In this document: piece by piece, positions 32,955 to 45,132 of the stretch
How positions within the stretch are numbered: position 1 is the first letter of the stretch
How the letters are laid out: each line of letters starts with the position of its first letter
Assembly: GCA_963765205.1 (NCBI GenBank)
Contig: CAVXVB010000004.1
Location: forward strand, 128,001-192,000
Reading direction: 5' to 3'
DNA from: an uncultured Verrucomicrobiae bacterium
Lineage (GTDB): Bacteria > Verrucomicrobiota > Verrucomicrobiia > Opitutales > JABDGR01
Length of the DNA stretch: 64,000 bases
Translations under genes and position numbers: made by a program
Notes under the pieces: model-generated
Seen by the model: the letters and a program-made list of their open reading frames with translations, nothing else
What the model was told of the DNA's origin: nothing
The model's database searches: none

Positions 32955-34433
32955 TCACTTTTGACTGCCGCCATCTGAAAAACGTCCAAGTGCCCATTGG
33001 ATTTTTGATTTGTCTCCGGGACGCGACAAAGCCTGGATTCGCGCGAGCAATTCCTTTCGGGGTATCTTCCATTCGACGGAAAGCAGCGCCGACACCGCAA
33101 CTACCCGATTCGGATTGTCAAAATATGGCCGAACTTCGTCAACCTCAAGCGACCCATCTCCTTTAAGCCACGCTAAATTTTCAAAAAATTGAAATTCATT
33201 TGATAAATGGGGATCATCTTCCTTCAGCGTTTCCAAATACGAAAATATTTGTGGAAAATAGGGAGTGGCCAATATGCCGACTCGGCCAATCCCCACCAAT
33301 CCTTTAGTTGGCCACAAAGGCGCAGAAAGCTCAACCAATTGTGCAGTTAAATCGTTTAGCCGCGCCTTGAGGCCTGCGTCCACCGCCTCTTCGGTCTCAG
33401 TCGGGTGATTACTTATGACCACGCGTTGGTAGGCGGAAAACATGTCCCGCGGCAGATTGCCGGCTTTGTCCAAACCCTTGAAAGCTGCACTCCCCCAGAT
33501 TCCCAAAATACTACCCGCCTCATCGAGCAAATCGCCGGTCGAATCATCGTGCAGTGGCTTGGTGCGGATCAATTCGAGTAAATCGGGAACTATTTCAAGT
33601 CGTTCGACGCTCCGTTCAGATATAGTTACCCAGCGCTGGTCTTGCTGGCCCAATCGCACCCGCTCGATATCGCGGTGGGCCATCTCCACGACCCATGGCA
33701 AAACTGGCTGATCCATATTTCGGAGATGAAGCTCAAGATTCGGGTGTTCGCCGGGCATGACATGAGTTTGCGCGGATGCATAGAACCAACCGTCCAATTT
33801 ATTGCTCCATTCCCAAGTAACTAGCGGATAATCTGGGTGTGCTTGCAACGTTTCTTGGCGCATCGGCGGGCCCACAGAGACTGAGCAGTGAGTTCCATCA
33901 TCTGTAATTGTTTCGGCCGACCAATTATCTGACGATGTAAGATATGCATCGGCGGTGCCGTAAAGATCGGTTGTGCTGGTAACGGCAGGGACTGAATTTT
34001 GAAAGCTAAAGAAAGTTGGGCCCTTAAACATTACTTTCACGCCAGCAACAGGCAGCCCTTTTGCATCCAGCACCGTAACCTCCACTTTCTTGCCTGTGGT
34101 TCGCGTTAAAACAAATAAAATGCAAAAAGTGAGCACGGTTCCAGCTATTGCGCCTCTGATATTCAGCGCGGCTCCAACTGGCAGGCGAATGAATGCAATA
34201 ATGAGAAAGAACACTGAGGGAACGGCCAGTATAAGCAGGCCTAAAGACGCAATTATTCCAAATATGGGCACTTGTAGCGCTGCCACAGCGGGCATAAAAA
34301 ATTTGACCGAGCCGATGGCAGCCAACGCCACCGTTGGCAACCAGGGGACCAGCGCCCATTTATGCCGGCGTCCAATCGCCACACAAATAATCAGGCCAAC
34401 ACCCTCAATGACGAGTGGAATCAAAATCTCCAT
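32955..34433 (-). CDS. Hypothetical membrane protein (lower GC)
   Basis: About four N-terminal TM segments, then VEVTVLDAKGLPVAGVKV (carboxypeptidase-regulatory-like strand) and a helical C-terminus; visibly more AT-rich than its neighbours. Confidence 0.7.
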   Translation of the reverse strand: MEILIPLVIEGVGLIICVAIGRRHKWALVPWLPTVALAAIGSVKFFMPAVAALQVPIFGIIASLGLLILAVPSVFFLIIAFIRLPVGAALNIRGAIAGTVLTFCILFVLTRTTGKKVEVTVLDAKGLPVAGVKVMFKGPTFFSFQNSVPAVTSTTDLYGTADAYLTSSDNWSAETITDDGTHCSVSVGPPMRQETLQAHPDYPLVTWEWSNKLDGWFYASAQTHVMPGEHPNLELHLRNMDQPVLPWVVEMAHRDIERVRLGQQDQRWVTISERSVERLEIVPDLLELIRTKPLHDDSTGDLLDEAGSILGIWGSAAFKGLDKAGNLPRDMFSAYQRVVISNHPTETEEAVDAGLKARLNDLTAQLVELSAPLWPTKGLVGIGRVGILATPYFPQIFSYLETLKEDDPHLSNEFQFFENLAWLKGDGSLEVDEVRPYFDNPNRVVAVSALLSVEWKIPRKELLARIQALSRPGDKSKIQWALGRFSDGGSQK

Positions 34434-34537
34434 CAAAAAATAATGGCGCGGCAATGACTTGCCGACAAGTCATTATCACATCCCGAACGTGGACAAAAAT
34501 GTCCGGGCTGGCGACAATAAATGTAGGGTAGCTCCCC

Positions 34538-37066
34538 TCACGCCACCGGCTGGTTTTGCTCGAACTTGAGGGTTTCGCCGCCGGTGCAGGTGATGCGGAT
34601 GGGTTCGCCGACGCGGACTTCGCCGCGCAGGATGGCCTCCGCCAGCGGGTCTTCGAGGAAATTCTCGACGGCGCGGCGCAGCGGACGCGCCCCGTATTTC
34701 TCGTCCCAGCCCTTGGCGAGGAGGAATTCCTTGGCGGGTTCGTCCACTTCGATTTCGATTTTCTGGCCGGCGAGGCGCTTGCGCACCTTGGTCAACTCCA
34801 GCTCGATAATCTGCTTCATGTGCGCCCTGTCGAGCGGGTGGAAAATCACGATCTGGTTGACGCGGTTGAGGAACTCCGGCTTGAAGTGCCGCTTCATCTC
34901 CTCGAGGATGCGCTCCTTGCTCTTCTCGTAGTCCCCATCGCTGGTGCGGCCCACGTCGAAGCCCATCGAGGACGGGCGCTGGAGCAGTTCCGCCCCGATG
35001 TTCGAGGTCATAATGAGGATGGTGTTGCGGAAGTCCACCGTGCGCCCGAGCGAGTCGGTCAGCCGGCCGTCTTCGAGCACCTGCAGGAGCAGCTGGACGA
35101 CGTCGGGGTGGGCCTTTTCGATTTCGTCGAAGAGGACGAGCGAATAGGGCTTGCGGCGGACGGCCTCGGTGAGCTGGCCGCCCTCCTCGTAGCCAATGTA
35201 GCCGGGGGGCGAGCCGACCAGGCGCGAGACGGAGAATTTCTCCATATACTCAGACATGTCAATTTGTAACAGCGCGTCCTGGTTGCCGAAGATGCGCTCG
35301 GCGAGGGTCTTGGCCAGGTGCGTCTTGCCGACGCCGGTGGGGCCGAGGAACATGAACGAGCCGATGGGCCGGCGCGGGTCCTTCAGGTCGGCGCGCGAGC
35401 GGCGGAGGGCCTTGGCGATGACCTCGGTGGCGTGCTCCTGGCCGATGACGTTGGCCTGGAGTTCCTTTTCGAGGTTAAGCAGCTTCTGGCTCTCCTTCTG
35501 CTCCATGCGCGCGAGCGGGATGCCCGTCCAGTCGGACACGACCTGGAGCATGTCGTCCTCGCCGACGGTGATGGTGCGGCGCTCGCGGGTGTGCTTCCAC
35601 GCTTCGATTTGCTGTTCGCGCTTGGCGCGGAGCTGTTTTTCCTGGTCGCGGAATTTGGCGGCCTCCTCGAAATGCTGCTTGGCGATGGCGTCCTCCTTTT
35701 GCGCGCAGACGGTCTCGATCTCCTTGGTCAGCGCCTCGATTTCGGGCGGGCGGTTGAGGCCCTCGATGCGCGCGCGCGCGCCAGCCTCGTCGAGCACGTC
35801 AATGGCCTTGTCGGGCAGGTAGCGGGCGGTGATGTAGCGGTCGGAAAGTTTCGCGGCCAGTTCGAGCGCCCGGTCGGAGAAGATGACCTTGTGGTGCTCC
35901 TCGTATTTCTGGCGCAGGCCCTTGAGGATAAGGATGGTTTCGTCCACGCTCGGGGCCTCGACCTTGATGGATTGGAAGCGGCGGTCAAGCGCGCTGTCCT
36001 TCTCGATATACTTGCGGTATTCGCTGAGGGTGGTTGCGCCGATGCACTGCAATTCGCCGCGCGAGAGGGCGGGCTTGAAGATGTTCGACGCGTCCATCGC
36101 GCCTTCGGCCGCGCCGGCGCCGACGATGGTGTGCAGCTCGTCAATGAAGATGATGATGTTCTTCGAGCGGCGAATTTCGTCCATGACGGCCTTGATGCGT
36201 TCCTCGAACTGGCCGCGGTATTTCGTGCCGGCAACCATGAGGGCGAGGTCGAGCGTGATGACGCGCTTGTCCAACAAAATTTCCGGCACGATGCCGGAGG
36301 CGATTTCCTGGGCGAGGCCCTCGACGATGGCCGTCTTGCCGACGCCGGCTTCGCCGATCAGGACGGGGTTGTTCTTGGTGCGGCGGCAGAGCGTCTGCAC
36401 GACGCGGCGGATTTCCGCGCGGCGGCCGATGACGGGGTCGAGTTCGCCATTGCGGGCCAGCTCGGTCAAGTCGCGGCCAAAGGCCTTGAGGGCGGGCGTC
36501 TTAATTTCCTTCTTCTCCTCGGGGTTGGCGGGCGGCGTGGGCGCGGAGCCGCTGCCGCCGGGCGCGGGCGTGCCGGCCGGTTCCTCGGGCGGGGGCGCGC
36601 CGGTTTCGCCGGAAAAATTCGGGTCCAGCTCCTGCAAAATTTCGTTGCGGCAGCGCTCGATGTCCACGTCGAGGTTCTTGAGCACGCGGGCGGCGACGCC
36701 CTCCCCTTCGCGCAGCAAGCCGAGGAGAATGTGCTCGGTGCCGATGTAGGAATGGTTGAGCATCTTCGCCTCCTTCTGCGCGAGGGCCAGGACTTTTTTC
36801 ACGCGTGGCGTATACGGAATGTTGCCTTGCGGCTTGGTCTCCGGGCCGGCACCGACTTGCTTCTCGACCGCGTTGCGCACCGTTTCCAGATCAAGACCCA
36901 TCTTTTGCAGCACGCTGACGGCCACGCCCTGGTTGAGGTTAATGAGGCCCAGCAACAAGTGCTCGGTGCCCACATAATTGTGATGGAACCGGTCGGCTTC
37001 CTTGCGCGCCAGGGCCAGCACTTGTTGGGCGCGGGGCGTGAAATTGTTTTGTGGTGTGTCGGCCAT
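34538..37066 (-). CDS. clpC: ATP-dependent Clp protease ATP-binding subunit ClpC
   Basis: Double Clp-N domain, GEAGVGKT / IDELH, UVR M-domain, GPTGVGKT / LFDEIEKAH, ClpP loop [11 protein letters not shown]. Confidence 0.97.
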
Positions 37067-37074
37067 GGGAAAAG

Positions 37075-39092
37075 TCAGGTTGGGGGTTGGGCAGCACAGA
37101 GATTGCGCAATGGTTCGTAATCTACACGCAAATTTGTCAAAACGCGAGCCGCGATTCCATCGCCCTCGCGCAAGAGCCCCAGCAGGAGGTGTTCCAATCC
37201 CACGCGGGAGCGTCGGAGGGCGGTCGCTTCTTCCCGCGCGAGGCCCAAGGCCCGGATGACGCCGGGGGTGAAGGGTATGCTTTTGGTTGGCCCAGGCTGC
37301 GTGCCCGCGGTGATCTGCTTTCCAATTTCCGCGCGCACGGCGGCCGGTTCGACCCCCATTTTGGCGAGGAGGCCAACGACGGTGTCCCGGCGGTGGCTGA
37401 GGAGCGCAAGGAGGACATGTTCCGTTGCGATACAATCATAGTGGAACCAGTCGGCCTCGCGCCGGGCGCGGGAAAGGGCTTGAATCACGTCGGGAAGAAT
37501 CACATCGAGATGGAAGGTTTTGCGCTGCTCGCCAAAAGCCGCAGCCAAAGCCTCACCCAGCTTGCCGAGCGAGGTGCGGCCCTCAGGGGTTTGCGCCCAA
37601 CGCTCGGTTCGTTCGTCGCGCATGGCCCGAAGCTTATTTTCCTGATCGCGGCACTTCGCCGCCTCCTCGAAATTCATCTTGGCGATGGCCTCATCCTTCT
37701 GCGCGCTGACTTTATCGATTTCCTTGGACAGTTCCTCGATTTCGGATGGGCGCTTGAGGCCCGCGAGGAAGGCGCGCGTCCAGGCGTCGGCGGGCACAAC
37801 ATAGGTCTTGTCGGGCCGGGTGTGGAAGCTGCGGACGGGTGGTTTCTCGCCGCCATCCGGCGCAGGGGCGGGCCCGAACCGAGACGCCCCGGCCTCGCCG
37901 GAAAAATTCGGCCCCAGTTCCTGCAAAATTTCATTGCGGCAGCGCTCAATATCCACCCCCAGGCTCCTGAGCACTCGGGCGGCGACGCCGTCGCCCTCGC
38001 GCAGTATTCCGAGCAAAATATGTTCGGTGCCAATATTTGAGTGCTGTAGCATTCTGGCCTCCTTCTGTGCCAGAGCCAGTGCCTTTTTGACGCGGGGTGT
38101 GTAGGGGATGTTGCCGGTGGGTGGCTCTTCGGGGCCGAAGCCCACTTGCTTCTCGACGGCGGCGCGCAAAGTCTCGAAATCAAGGCCCAATTTTTGCAGC
38201 ACGCTGACACCCACGCCCTGGTTGAGGCTGATGAGGCCGAGCAGCAAGTGCTCGGTGCCAACGTAATTGTGGTGGAACCGGTCAGCTTCTTTGCGCGCCA
38301 GGGCCAGCACCCGTTGGGCGCGGGGCGTGAAATTATTCAGCGGGAGCCGGCTGGTGTGGCTGCGCGTGGCCTGCGGGTCGGCCAAGCCCGACGGCAGCAG
38401 TTTTATGGAAAAGTTCCAGGTGGATTTCTCTTTGGTCGGCGGAGGTTTGATTCCCAGCCACCGGGCCAAGCCACGCCAGGGAAACTTGGACTTTTCAGTT
38501 TTGGGCCGGGAAGGGCTGCAGCGGCGTGGTGGGGGGAGGCCCGTCATTCTCCGGTGGCGGCTTGGTCTCGCCGGGGTCCGGCGGCGGGGAACCCGGATCT
38601 TCCAGCACGACCAGCGCCGCTTTGGATTTCGGGTCCTCGGAAAAATTCGGGTCTAATTCCCGCAAAATTTCCGCGCGAAACTTCGCCACATCCAACTTGA
38701 ACTCTTGAAAGACCCGCGCGGCGGCACCTTCGCCCTCACTCAAGAGGCCAAGGAGCAGGTGCTCGGTGCCGATGTAGGAATGTTTGAGCGCCTTGGCTTC
38801 CTTTTGCGCGAGGACCCAAAATTTTCTTCACGCGAGGCGTGTAGGGAATGTTGCCTGCCGGCTTGTCGGCAGGGCCACGACCCACTTCCTTTTCCACGGC
38901 GTTGCGCGTCGTCTCCAAATCGAAGCCATGCTTTTGCAGCACGCTGACCGCCACGCCCTGGCCCAGATTGACCAGGCCCAGCAACAAGTGTTCGGCGCCC
39001 ACGTAATTGTGATGGAACCGGTCAGCCTCCTTGCGCGCCAGCGCCAGCACCTGCTGCGCGCGCGGCGTGAAGCGGATCGTAGGGTCGGACAT
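37075..39092 (-). CDS. ATPase-less ClpC paralog: N-domain, N-domain, M-domain coil, N-domain (one frameshift at ~38816, probable second at ~38500-38535)
   Basis: ORF pieces 38736..39092, 38495..38743 and 37075..38547 give three complete double Clp-N domains and a UVR coil similar to ClpC's. No Walker motifs. Could be one ~670-aa gene or two genes. Confidence 0.75.
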
Positions 39093-39177: not shown

Positions 39178-40266
39178 TCAATTCTTCTCGAACGCGCGCT
39201 CGAAATTCAACGTGGGCAGCGAGGCGACCTGCTCGCGCAGGAACCGTGCGCGCGCCACGTCGCGTTTTTGCGTCTCGAGCGTGCCGCGGGCGGCGAGCTG
39301 GACGTGGCCGGGCTGGCTTTCGATCAACAGGCGGTCAATCCGCGCGCGCTCCGCTTCCGGCAGCAGAGCGAGGTCGGCGGCCAGGCGCAGGAGCGAGAGG
39401 CAGTTCATCGCCTCGACCGAGGTCATCACATGCGCGTTGCGCACGGTGCCAAACGCGCGCCCAATTTTATCAAGCAGCTTGGCCGAGTCGCTCTCCATGA
39501 GTTTCGCGCGGGCGTTTTGCTCCTGCTCGACGATGGTTTGCAGCACCGAGGTGATGCGCTTGATGATGTCCTCTTCGCTTTCACCGAGGGTCTGCTGGTT
39601 GGAAATCTGAAATATACTGCCGCTGGCCTCCGAGCCTTCGCCATACCAGCCGCGCACCGCGAGGCCCAGTTGGTTCACCGCGCGGATGGCCTGCTCCATC
39701 TGGCTGGCGAGGACGAGGCCGGGCAGGTGCATCATCACCGAAGCGCGCAGACCCGTACCCACGTTGGTCGGGCACGCGGTCAGGTAACCCAGCTCCGCCG
39801 AAAACGCGAGGTCGAGCTTTTCTTCGAGGCCGTTGTCGAGCGCGTCGGCCATCTTCCACACGCGCTTGAATTGGAAGCCTGGGCGCATCACTTGCAGGCG
39901 CAGATGGTCCTCTTCATTGATCATGACCGACATGCTTTGGTCGCGGCTGATAATGACGCCCGCGCCGGGCGAGCCGGCTGACAACTCGCGGCTGATGAGG
40001 TGCCGCTCGACGAGCACTTGCTTTTCCAAATCGTCCAGCGTCGCCAAATCGAGCACATAGGCTTTTTTCATCGATGCAGCGTCCTGCGCGGCCTGTGCGC
40101 ACCGCGCAAAAATTTCCCGCCGCTGGGCCTCTTTGGCCCACCCGGGGAACGGAAAGTCCCGCAAGTTCCGCGCCAGGCGGATGCGCGTGCTGAGCACGAT
40201 CGGCCCCGGCGGCGAGCCGCCCGGCACGACCTTGGCCGGCGTGTCCAAAATAGGGAGGATGTGCAT
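39178..40266 (-). CDS. mcsB: Protein arginine kinase
   Basis: STRIRLARNL, LVERHLIS, MINEEDHLRLQ, GYLTACPTNVGTGLRASVMMHLP, FQISNQQTLG. Confidence 0.95.
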   Translation of the reverse strand: MHILPILDTPAKVVPGGSPPGPIVLSTRIRLARNLRDFPFPGWAKEAQRREIFARCAQAAQDAASMKKAYVLDLATLDDLEKQVLVERHLISRELSAGSPGAGVIISRDQSMSVMINEEDHLRLQVMRPGFQFKRVWKMADALDNGLEEKLDLAFSAELGYLTACPTNVGTGLRASVMMHLPGLVLASQMEQAIRAVNQLGLAVRGWYGEGSEASGSIFQISNQQTLGESEEDIIKRITSVLQTIVEQEQNARAKLMESDSAKLLDKIGRAFGTVRNAHVMTSVEAMNCLSLLRLAADLALLPEAERARIDRLLIESQPGHVQLAARGTLETQKRDVARARFLREQVASLPTLNFERAFEKN

Positions 40267-40406: not shown

Positions 40407-40922
40407 TCAGGACGCCACGATGGGCGCATCCCGCTTGGCGCGCAGGGTTTCGAGTTGGTCGCGGTAGCACGCGGCCGTTTCGAAGTTTTCGCTTTGGACC
40501 GCTTCGCGAAACTGGCGTTCCAGGGATTCGATTTCGCGGGCCAATTCGAGGCGGCGCCACTGGCGCGTGGGCGTCTTGCCCTGGTGTCGGCCACCTTTGT
40601 GCAGCCCGGCCAGGAGCGGCCCCAGCTCCGCCTTCATGGTGTCGTAACAAGCCGCGCAGCCGAGCCGGCCGGATTTCTTGAAATCGCGCGCCGTGTAGCC
40701 GCATTGCTCGCAGACGAGGCTCACGCCTTCGGTTTCCTCGGCCGGGTCGGCGAAACTCTTGGCCAGCAAGGCCGCCAGCGAAAATGTCTCCGAGTCGGTC
40801 ACCCCTTTCGACTGCGCGCACTCCTCGCACAGGTCCACTTTCTGGAACTGGTTCTTGACGACTTTCGTCAGATGGACGTGGGCGGGTTTGCCGCACAAAT
40901 CGCAATGGAGGGATTCGCCCAT
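40407..40922 (-). CDS. mcsA: McsB activator with CxxC motifs and UVR coil
   Basis: CDLC, LCEECA, CEQCG, GRLGCAACY, HQGKTP, ENFETAACYRD. Confidence 0.93.
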   Translation of the reverse strand: MGESLHCDLCGKPAHVHLTKVVKNQFQKVDLCEECAQSKGVTDSETFSLAALLAKSFADPAEETEGVSLVCEQCGYTARDFKKSGRLGCAACYDTMKAELGPLLAGLHKGGRHQGKTPTRQWRRLELAREIESLERQFREAVQSENFETAACYRDQLETLRAKRDAPIVAS

Positions 40923-40960: not shown

Positions 40961-40976
40961 GCATAATACGTGCCAA
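40961..40976 (-). promoter_or_regulatory. Putative sigma54 (-24/-12) promoter for the mcsA-mcsB-clpC operon
   Basis: Minus strand TTGGCACGTATTATGC: TGGCACG-N4-ATGC with exact GG-N10-GC spacing, 38 nt upstream of the mcsA ATG. Confidence 0.6.
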
Positions 40977-41089
40977 AGCGCGGGAGGTAAATGCCCAAAC
41001 GGCGGGGAAATGAGTGCAAGTGCTATTGCCTTGGAAGCCGGGGCGCGGGCTTCTATCCTGCCTCCCAATCTTGGGGTGGTTGCTCAACG

Positions 41090-43224: not shown

Positions 43225-43650
43225 TTACGTCGGTGGAATTGAAAAAATTTCCACCGCCCCGGCGCGGGCCAGTTGCGCGGGCGTCATGACGTAGACCCAG
43301 GCCTCGCCAAGCGAGGCGGACGCGGCGGAATCATCATCGGCAAAACACGCCGCGCGCACGCGTTGGTAATCGTTTTGTTCGGGCGACCGCGCGGCCTCGA
43401 AGCCTTCGAGCCGGTCGAAATTTTGCAGGACGGCATCGTCCCGCAGCACCAACCGCCAGCCCCGGATCCACCGCAAATCTTCGCCCTCCGTGGCCAGCGC
43501 CAGATAACCATCGTGTAACTGATACGCCCGCCCGCGCACCCGCGCCGGTGTGCTTTCCGCGACCCGGCCCTCGCAGAAGCGCGCCCAGTTCGACCCGCGC
43601 GGCACGAGCGAGCCGTAAACAAAGACCGCGAGATCCACATTGTCTCTCAT
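43225..43650 (-). CDS. Gamma-glutamylcyclotransferase (AIG2-like) family protein
   Basis: VFVYGSL, FDRLEG, YQRV, AWVY. Confidence 0.85.
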   Translation of the reverse strand: MRDNVDLAVFVYGSLVPRGSNWARFCEGRVAESTPARVRGRAYQLHDGYLALATEGEDLRWIRGWRLVLRDDAVLQNFDRLEGFEAARSPEQNDYQRVRAACFADDDSAASASLGEAWVYVMTPAQLARAGAVEIFSIPPT

Positions 43651-43772
43651 GCGCCCATCATGCCACCCTCGCCCGCCCCACCCAAGCCGGATTTTTCCTT
43701 GGCCCGCCGAACCCCCATCTCTATACTTTCCCGTTCCCGTCTTCGGTGCGGCCTCCGAACTCAGCATTCAGC

Positions 43773-45132
43773 ATGAACCGAGTCCACCTCAAAACTTATG
43801 GCTGCCAGATGAACGAACGCGACTCCGAAGCGGTCGCGGCGCTCCTGCGCGCGCGGGGCTATGCGCTGGTCGAGGACGAGGCGCTGGCGGACATCGTGCT
43901 GCTCAACACCTGTTCCGTGCGCGATTTGGCCGAGCAGAAGGCCATGGGCAAAGCCGCCCACCTGGCCAAACGCAAGCGGCGCAACCCGCGCTTCATCGTG
44001 GGCATTCTTGGCTGCATGGCCCAAAACCGCGGCGCGAACTTGCTTGACCGGCTGCCGGATTTGGATCTCGTCGTGGGCACGCAGAAATTCCACCGCGTGC
44101 CGGACCACCTCGATAATTTGCTCGCAACGATCCGCGGCGAAGGCCCGTGCCCCGCTACACTCGTGGGACCTCGACGCCGAGGCGGGTTCGCAAAACGAAA
44201 TCCGTGGGCACATGAGCGTGGACGGCGCACCGCAAGTCTCGGCCTACGTCTCCATCATGCAAGGGTGCAACATGCACTGCACGTTTTGCATTGTGCCGAA
44301 AACCCGCGGGTCGGAACGCTCGCGGCCACTCGACGAAATCGTGCGTGAGGCCGAAGAACTGGTGACGAACGGGACGCGCGAGATCACCTTGCTCGGGCAA
44401 ATCGTCACCAGCTACGGGCGGCGCGAATATCCGATGGTCAGCGGCAAAACACCGTTCGTACAATTGCTCGAACGCTTGCACGCGCTCCCGCAATTGCATC
44501 GCCTTCGCTTCACCTCGCCCCACCCCAGCGGGTTCAAGTCCGATTTGATCGCGGCGTATCGCGATCTTCCCAAACTCGGCGAATACGCGCACCTGCCCGT
44601 GCAAAGCGGTTCTGACCGGATGCTGCGGGCGATGAACCGGCCCTACACGCGCGATTCCTACCGGCGGCTCATTGAACAGCTGCGCGCGGCCCAGCCCAAA
44701 ATGTGGTTCTCAACGGATGTAATCGTCGGCTTCCCCGGCGAGACGGACGAGGATTTTACGGCCACACGTGATTTGTTCCGCGACGTCGGCTTCGAGATGG
44801 CGTATCTGTTCAAATACTCAACCCGCACTGGCACGCCCGCGGCAGAAATGCCCGACCAGGTGCCCGCCGAAGTCGCCGAGGCGCGCCACAGGGAATTGAT
44901 GGCACTACTAGAACAACGCTCACTCGCCCGCCATCAGGAACTCGTCGGTACGACGCAGGAAGTGCTCGCCCAGGAACCGGCGCGGCGTCCTCCAGGCCGC
45001 TTGCTGGGGCGCACGCGCGGCTTTCGCAAGGTGTTCTTTGACGCGCCCAGGCACCGCCTCGGCGAACTTGTCCCCGTGCGCATCACCCGCGCGACGGTTG
45101 CAGCGCTGGAGGGGGAGATTGGGGAATGCTGA
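43773..45132 (+). CDS. miaB: tRNA-2-methylthio-N6-dimethylallyladenosine synthase, frameshifted at 44165-44167
   Basis: KTYGCQMNERDSE, LNTCSVR, GCMAQ, radical SAM GCNMHCTFCIVP, RFTSPHP, TDVIVGFPGET, TRAM domain. Removing one G of GGG joins the frames. Confidence 0.93.

Follow-up and report, generated by a model that had tools for sequence, protein, structure and literature searches.

An ATPase-less tandem Clp-N gene between mcsB and clpC in an Opitutales bacterium and its possible role in reading phosphoarginine

Protein tagging with phosphoarginine (pArg) has been described mainly in Firmicutes. In the characterized systems, McsB writes pArg and the N-domain of ClpC reads it, and occupancy of the ClpC pockets destabilizes a resting state that is held by N-M and M-M contacts (excerpts of PMC12583610 and PMC13657355). 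Only two kinds of ATPase-less regulators built from ClpC N-domains were found in the literature searched, the single-domain actinobacterial ClpC2/ClpC3 and plant ClpT. ClpC2 (PDB 8B9O and 8AD9) joins an N-terminal dimerization domain to a single Clp-N domain; according to the accessible part of one report, it keeps one pocket, binds pArg at ~5 µM, and has been proposed to act by sequestering pArg-bearing proteins (bioRxiv 10.64898/2026.06.30.735635). ClpC2 and ClpC3 compete for degrons, and ClpC3 lacks a pArg receptor (both from portions of PMC12678426). The plastid proteins ClpT1 and ClpT2 (PDB 4Y0B and 4Y0C) are stand-alone double Clp-N proteins, described in extracts of PMC8889267 as single-domain proteins that are specific to plants and accessory to the protease core.

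Here we analyzed a 64,000-nucleotide stretch of DNA (the window) from an uncultured Opitutales bacterium, in which a gene encoding three tandem double Clp-N domains (N1, N2, and N3) and a helical coil, hereafter the insert, lies between mcsB and clpC. Compared with ClpC of B. subtilis and S. aureus (PDB 5HBN, 3PXG, and 9QCL), the N-domain is closely copied in N1 and N2, the M-domain is copied in the coil, including the conserved tip Phe, and the operon is the same; however, ClpC has two AAA+ modules, whereas the insert has neither AAA1 nor AAA2. Without an AAA+ ring, its product cannot unfold substrates or dock ClpP as ClpC does. Like ClpC2 and ClpC3, the insert is a ClpC N-domain homolog without AAA+ modules, ClpC2 is among its sequence and fold matches, and the pArg pocket residues conserved in ClpC2 appear, by motif, intact at pArg1 in N1 and at both sites in N2. 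Unlike ClpC2, it begins its first Clp-N domain at residue 6, has three such domains and no extra domain, and belongs to orthologs with three or four tandem domains between mcsB and clpC that can carry an M coil. N1 and N2 are 78 to 86% identical to their own ClpC, versus about 40% in the ClpC2 comparison, and the cyclomarin contacts F80 and E89 (ClpC1 numbering) are not kept, being Y and A in N2 and in the host ClpC. The operator CGTCAAC-n5-GTTGACG, through which ClpC2 represses itself (part of PMC10030653), had no match in the window even when 2 mismatches were tolerated. In contrast to ClpC3, the insert keeps three pockets, N3 alone being without one. ClpT1 and ClpT2 show 23 to 25% identity to the insert and are single-domain proteins on the plastid ClpPR core, whereas the insert has three domains, sits in a bacterial operon, and nests among Opitutales ClpC N-domains; for the ClpT proteins, no connection with McsB came to light.

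Locus and reading frame of the insert

The minus strand carries, in order, mcsA, mcsB, the insert, and clpC. The first is a 171-aa open reading frame (ORF; 40407..40922) with a C-terminal UVR coil (Pfam UVR), which we take to be mcsA from its position ahead of the kinase gene and the architecture of McsA. It is followed by a protein-arginine kinase homolog (39178..40266; 362 aa; Pfam ATP-gua_Ptrans, E 6e-71), whose synteny with mcsA and clpC identifies it as probable McsB, then by the insert (37075..39092; a 671-aa ORF when two assembly insertions are discounted), and then by clpC (34538..37066; 842 aa), which comprises N, AAA1, M, and AAA2, has both pArg motifs intact, and is the source of the domains copied into the insert. 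The insert starts 85 nt past the mcsB stop and, as the initial annotation had noted, stops 8 nt ahead of the clpC ATG. Its ortholog in genome G008 lies 20 nt after mcsB and 9 nt before clpC, and that in G003 ends 16 nt before clpC. The insert is probably transcribed together with mcsA, mcsB, and clpC, and a sigma-70-like match upstream of mcsA (40963..40991, minus strand; a consensus match at 9/12) is a candidate operon promoter. Terminator-like sites in the promoter/terminator scan were no commoner than in shuffles (8 vs 10.0), one of them falling inside N1, and a scan with the CIRCE consensus gave no match. A 499-aa ORF with hydrophobic N-terminal segments lies directly downstream of clpC (window 32955-34454, minus strand), and the genome holds two clpP-family genes, neither adjoining the operon (G000:C9:1421211-1421738 and C4:245886-246410).

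As assembled, the insert is spread over three frames. The first apparent frameshift corresponds to an extra assembled base at 38815, missing in contigs of short-read runs X1 and X2, and the second to one at 38511, missing in contigs of X2 and X3. Four of the six listed runs were compared with the window, and each base was missing in two of the four; the assembled letter at either position occurred in none of the short-read contigs compared, and the contigs without it showed no other difference from the window. Short-read depth was 2.4 to 5.7, and run X5 yielded only short, dissimilar pieces. Since X1 to X3 come from one study, possibly the source of the window, the comparison is a check by other reads and not by a second population. 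A close ortholog with an intact ORF of 581 aa, P0002, runs without a break across both positions. Assembly error seems to account for the two frameshifts; the corrected gene has 671 codons, in agreement with the single ~670-aa ORF that had been suggested.

The initial annotation had raised the possibility of a decaying duplicate with real frameshifts, absence from relatives, and a dN/dS near 1. This is ruled out by the short-read contigs, from which the breaks are missing, by intact orthologs, with an insert between mcsB and clpC in relatives, and by dN/dS values of 0.11 to 0.38 for the N-domains. An arrangement of two genes, one for N1 by itself and the other the annotated 490-aa ORF, was likewise rejected for this genome, given that the breaks are absent from the short-read contigs and P0002 is continuous. 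A misassembly of clpC repeats, the other doubt raised at the outset, was rejected as well: the copies are 72 to 81% identical in DNA, and single contigs cross both outer junctions, from mcsB to N1 and from N3 to clpC. In the short-read contigs, no more than 24 letters bridge N2 and the coil, and the N2-coil-N3 order was seen independently in P0012. The insert is one real, maintained gene.

Two other genes seem to change frame in this assembly. A second long Clp ATPase gene (ClpB-like; G000:C7:357933-360478) shifts frame near 359000, probably through another assembly indel, which fits an indel-prone assembly. A radical-SAM methylthiotransferase-like gene (window 43548-45132, plus strand), which we take to be MiaB-like from its motifs, appears to fall into two frames near 44000, possibly through a further assembly indel.

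Domains, pockets, and copying history

Pfam and reading of the ORF bore out the initial description of three double Clp-N domains and an M-type coil with both AAA+ modules absent. Within 671 aa, the order is N1 (residues 6-150), N2 (252-396), coil (427-493), and N3 (531-669); only Clp_N and UVR passed the cut-offs (coil UVR E 2e-9), and no AAA family matched any of the three pieces of the insert. All features lie on the minus strand. N1 (38642..39077) is 78% identical to its own ClpC N-domain, with pArg1 intact and T31 of pArg2 changed to A, and N2 (37903..38337) is 86% identical, with both motifs intact. N3 (37084..37500), a degenerate, family-specific terminal Clp-N domain, has 47% identity to ClpC and neither motif intact, a degeneracy that the initial annotation had not noted. 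The AlphaFold model, which covers the 490-aa part and not N1 (mean pLDDT 67, pTM 0.40), has N2 and N3 folded, the coil as a helical hairpin, and the linkers disordered, and its closest fold matches are ClpC N-domains. The gene encodes independently folded Clp-N domains on flexible linkers in one ORF. Within the Pro-rich disordered N1-N2 linker, a basic-aromatic amphipathic segment (residues 202-212; 38455..38487) has a hydrophobic moment of 0.62 and is modeled as a helix at low confidence.

The coil lies within a ClpC-derived insertion (37564..37818, minus strand) composed of the end of the AAA1 lid helix and the M-domain (UVR) helical hairpin. As initially claimed, it is close to the M-domain of the neighboring ClpC, with 34/55 residues identical. 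Because of this identity and the AAA1 lid helix that precedes it, the coil derives from ClpC and not from McsA; the UVR-type coil is common to the insert, McsA, and other UVR-coil proteins, but the insert has no zinc domains. The McsA coil aids reassembly of McsAB oligomers (excerpt of PMC11046695). The coil is a clean ~83-aa insertion relative to P0002 and is present in two of six orthologs. It keeps the F436-equivalent tip residue, and at the E435 equivalent the insert has N and the host ClpC has H. When 572 candidates were searched with the coil region, E 1e-12 was reached by only 2 proteins, of which one was the query. A complex prediction of ClpC 1-500 with coil and N3 gave a score of 0.11 and a mark of 0.32.

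Pocket residues were mapped by alignment to B. subtilis ClpC, and T105, T31, T81, and R83 were counted in on our own assumption, on the basis of the two-fold symmetry of the domain. The accessible part of PMC12583610 assigns T7, R9, and E106 to pArg1 and E32 to pArg2. By motif, three of the six pockets of the insert are intact (pArg1 in N1 and N2 and pArg2 in N2), and it is plausible that these three are functional; in ClpC2, a Thr-to-Ala change abolishes pArg binding (bioRxiv 10.64898/2026.06.30.735635, in the part available). Across the four full-length orthologs, pArg1 is intact in 8/8 ClpC-like domains and pArg2 in 5/8, being altered in the first domain of 3/4, and the terminal domain keeps neither motif in 5/5 orthologs scored. 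The eight ClpC-like domains were changed at 3/64 pocket positions versus 116/760 other ClpC-invariant positions (Fisher P = 0.016; without P0002, 2/48 versus 96/570, P = 0.021), a test that overstates the difference since the domains compared are related, whereas the terminal domains showed no sparing of pockets (19/40 versus 249/475, P = 0.62, some changes being alignment gaps). The pocket Thr and Glu belong to the GTEH motifs at helix starts, and it may be folding that conserves them. Both pockets are kept in all 40 ClpC N-domains examined, and at least one in 117 of 119 homologs among the best 120 of 1066 proteins from a search with N3. N1 and N2 also carry two ClpC-like hydrophobic grooves, with the F6, L14, Y80, and I88 equivalents the same as in the host ClpC in 8/8 ClpC-like domains.

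NG86 dN/dS against clpC was 0.18 for N1 (CI, 0.08 to 0.32) and 0.11 for N2 (CI, 0.06 to 0.19). N3, whose dS against clpC is undefined by this method, was compared between genomes and gave 0.38 (0.22 to 0.62), 0.20, and 0.32, a range that spans two genera; the clpC and mcsB controls gave 0.02 to 0.19. The N-domains are under purifying selection, and because clpC evolves slowly, pairwise comparison with it gives too low a dN/dS for the branch of the insert itself, the true value perhaps being about double if dS splits evenly. Pairwise dN/dS gave no sign of positive selection. For the coil, dN/dS against clpC was 0.56 (CI, 0.29 to 1.31), an interval that includes 1, and its lower dS (0.47 versus 0.9) indicates that it is the youngest piece. 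On the other hand, the coil is identical at 47/55 residues between the window's genome (G000) and P0012, with only 11 matches in the preceding 25 residues, which favors constraint on the coil.

In a quick protein tree (92 rows, few columns), the five terminal domains known at that point formed one long-branched clade (SH 97), and N1 and N2 nested among ClpC N-domains of the genus; N3 also carries family-specific invariant residues. In a DNA tree of 21 rows, N2 of G000 was sister to its own clpC (96/91), both G008 domains grouped with G008 clpC (91/89), and N1 of G000 grouped with the penultimate domain of G003 (100/99). A single clade for all six insert domains was rejected (p-AU 0.035), as was position-wise orthology (p-AU 0.008 and 0.018), values that are optimistic since the groups were named after the trees had been seen and base composition varies. 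We read these data to mean that the ClpC-like domains have been copied anew from the neighboring clpC on more than one occasion, that the terminal domain N3 is old and family specific, and that the M coil came later, as an import of ~83 residues.

Distribution in the family and beyond

The gene lies between mcsB and clpC in three of ten family genomes, with three domains in G000 and G003 and four in G008 (668 aa, the second degenerate). In six others mcsB directly precedes clpC, and G001 (88% complete) gave no Clp_N match; the absence from the interval in six genomes, with no Clp_N in a seventh, indicates that the gene is dispensable. A profile of the terminal domain, run over 401 genomes of the order, matched at 1e-36 in 244 and gave no match in 157; only G000, G003, and G008 scored below 1e-70 or showed more than one match, the rest being at the level of clpC, and no ortholog in other families was found among the 401. 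Intact orthologs are L031, L032, and P0002; L039 and L040 carry the same genes and were not counted again. Protein searches added P0002, P0012, and P0144, the latter two partial and without gene context. The six orthologs scored 217 to 262 bits on the terminal-domain profile, which was built from five of them, versus at most 153 for anything else (250 proteins plus the own ClpC). A metagenome scan with the terminal domain gave at least one ortholog locus, L119, among the 63 matches listed, with the gene layout of L032. The initial view of an extra layer "in this lineage" was therefore too wide for the family, with three of ten genomes, and too narrow for a class that recurs elsewhere.

Searching with N3 returned 1066 proteins, under a ranking that sums over domains and so favors arrays, from which no frequency can be derived. 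Among the best 120, 72 proteins have two full Clp-N domains, 31 have three, and 8 have four, and none carries an AAA family annotation. A further 130 proteins (50% library) include 129 without an AAA match, 8 with five to nine full domains, and 3 with an M-like coil; proteins combining N-domain and coil elsewhere are P0085, P0140, P0213, and P0216. ATPase-less Clp-N arrays of 2 to 9 domains are common. In the quick protein tree, arrays of other lineages branch with the ClpC of those lineages, which points to separate origins. The literature searched, which covered little subscription literature, yielded no paper that deals with tandem Clp-N proteins; part of PMC7159879 mentions, for another system, fusions of ClpN repeats to vWA domains.

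Several architectures stood out among the homologs. P0121 (1762 aa) and P0137 (1375 aa) hold nine full double Clp-N domains with no AAA match, and P0161 (799 aa), which matches AAA in addition to having three Clp-N domains, is an array fused to an ATPase. P0003, P0004, P0007, and P0008 share an unannotated ~80-aa C-terminal domain. Eight proteins of 716 to 726 aa (P0030, P0032, P0037, P0038, P0040, P0058, P0061, and P0072), most of them named predicted dehydrogenase, join an oxidoreductase-type module (PF01408 and PF22725) to two C-terminal Clp-N domains and appear from their domain content to be a recurring enzyme-reader fusion. In 4/4 full-length orthologs, an amphipathic stretch with a Trp lies ahead of the penultimate domain (moments 0.62, 0.72, 0.54, and 0.53; best in the ClpC linker, 0.22), and of the 48 multi-Clp-N homologs that have an N-terminal extension, 24 open with an amphipathic helix that is basic and contains Trp (P0003, P0004, P0008, P0013, P0031, and others).

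For Planctomycetota, 151 genomes were searched with P0009, and the 20 best-scoring loci were viewed, a sample biased toward the query. Three of these 20 have an N-only gene right after mcsB (L193:1-1824, L195:2236-2691, and L205:691-1359). L193, the query locus, has four domains and reaches the end of its contig, and clpC starts ~220 nt from the end of another contig; L195 and L205 have one Clp-N domain each, followed by clpC. An N-only gene thus lies between mcsB and clpC in 2 of the 16 loci of this query-biased sample that show both. Despite their four domains versus one, the genes of L193 and L195 are closely related. At the T31 position, the first domains of L193, L195, and L205 have V, V, and P, which echoes the pArg2 loss in first domains of the Opitutales family.

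Possible role and alternatives

There is, in our assessment, about an even chance that the insert encodes a multivalent buffer of pArg substrates coexpressed with McsAB-ClpC, working like ClpC2 without being ClpC2, from which it differs in phylum and by a separate origin. McsB would mark damaged proteins with pArg; N1 and N2 would bind the tagged proteins with avidity, hold them, and compete with the ClpC N-domain. This competition would lift the threshold for ClpC activation and regulate the flow of substrates to ClpCP, an effect reported for ClpC2. N3 would serve as a scaffold or oligomerization unit and not as a reader, and the M coil would be an optional late addition. No demonstration of arginine phosphorylation in Verrucomicrobia was found in the literature searched; mcsA, mcsB, and the ClpC pockets suggest that such tagging occurs there. 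The multivalent pArg reader acting as buffer or decoy that was first proposed fits in that the pockets are spared; its valency has to be reduced, since three pockets seem intact and not six, with none in N3.

The same domains could instead act in a biological conflict, as imitations of the host's ClpC N-domain that sequester ClpC-hijacking peptides or phage proteins and that are recopied so as to remain a close likeness. We consider such a decoy unlikely. It would account for the patchy presence in three of ten family genomes, the varying domain number (3, 3, and 4 in the family and 1 versus 4 in the two related planctomycete genes), the recopying from the own clpC, and the unchanged groove residues, and ClpC2 is described as an antibiotic sponge, with phage proteins raised as ligands, in part of PMC10030653. 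Yet tandem duplication alone also yields patchy presence and recopying, it is the pocket residues that are preferentially conserved, pairwise dN/dS bears no mark of positive selection, and the Y and A of the host ClpC at the cyclomarin contacts reported in the same partial source indicate no known ligand. Less probable again is docking on ClpC by way of coil-M or N-M contacts, with the protein serving as an adaptor that hands over pArg substrates or as an allosteric regulator that alters the resting state. The S. aureus ClpC resting state does rely on M-M and N-M contacts (portions of PMC12583610 and PMC13657355), and the retained tip residue, the predicted hairpin, the conservation of the coil in P0012, and the existence of N-plus-coil proteins elsewhere speak for docking. 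However, this explanation is weakened because four of six orthologs have no coil, and the near-empty coil search, the dN/dS interval of the coil, and the substitutions at the E435 equivalent also count against it. Docking through the M-domain had been put forward as a general feature; being late and present in two of six orthologs, the coil cannot provide the core function.

A tolerated, weakly constrained duplication product with no dedicated role, kept open by folding constraint and recombination with clpC, is also very improbable. Most family genomes lack the gene, the number and order of domains vary among orthologs, and dN/dS exceeds that of clpC and mcsB, all as such a product would have it, but the divergence of N3 is too great for upkeep through clpC recombination, N3 forms its own clade, its dN/dS over two genera and its invariant residues indicate constraint, and three full-length orthologs keep long ORFs intact. 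We give the least credence to a membrane-tethered receptor, in which the amphipathic segment would anchor the readers at the inner membrane to collect tagged proteins or ClpC. Amphipathic stretches do recur in all four full-length orthologs and as N-terminal helices in half of the extended homologs; nonetheless, the segments do not align residue by residue, one has a net charge of 0, model confidence at the segment is under 50, and the cut-offs were our own choice.

Beyond the buffer reading for the insert itself, we tentatively raise the broader and rather doubtful proposal that polyvalent pArg readers make up a class, so far undescribed, that has evolved repeatedly, with up to nine ClpC N-domains copied from the own clpC and acting as avidity filters. 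Its arrays would be placed between arginine kinase and unfoldase, some of them equipped with an M coil or with a helix that seeks the membrane. Such filters for ClpCP would resemble the shuttle receptors of the ubiquitin system. The narrow, patchy distribution of the Opitutales family limits its significance. Nonetheless, the tandem form occurs in the mcsA-mcsB-clpC operon separately in Opitutales and Planctomycetota, which suggests a recurring need for a reader between kinase and protease, and the insert is a gene whose reader domains renew from a neighbor while one domain diverges. It opens, with soluble proteins, the question of whether valency sets the degradation threshold, and also that of whether pArg proteolysis operates in Verrucomicrobiota and Planctomycetota. 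If the avidity-filter proposal is true, these arrays would decide which tagged proteins reach ClpCP in phyla in which pArg proteolysis has been little studied.
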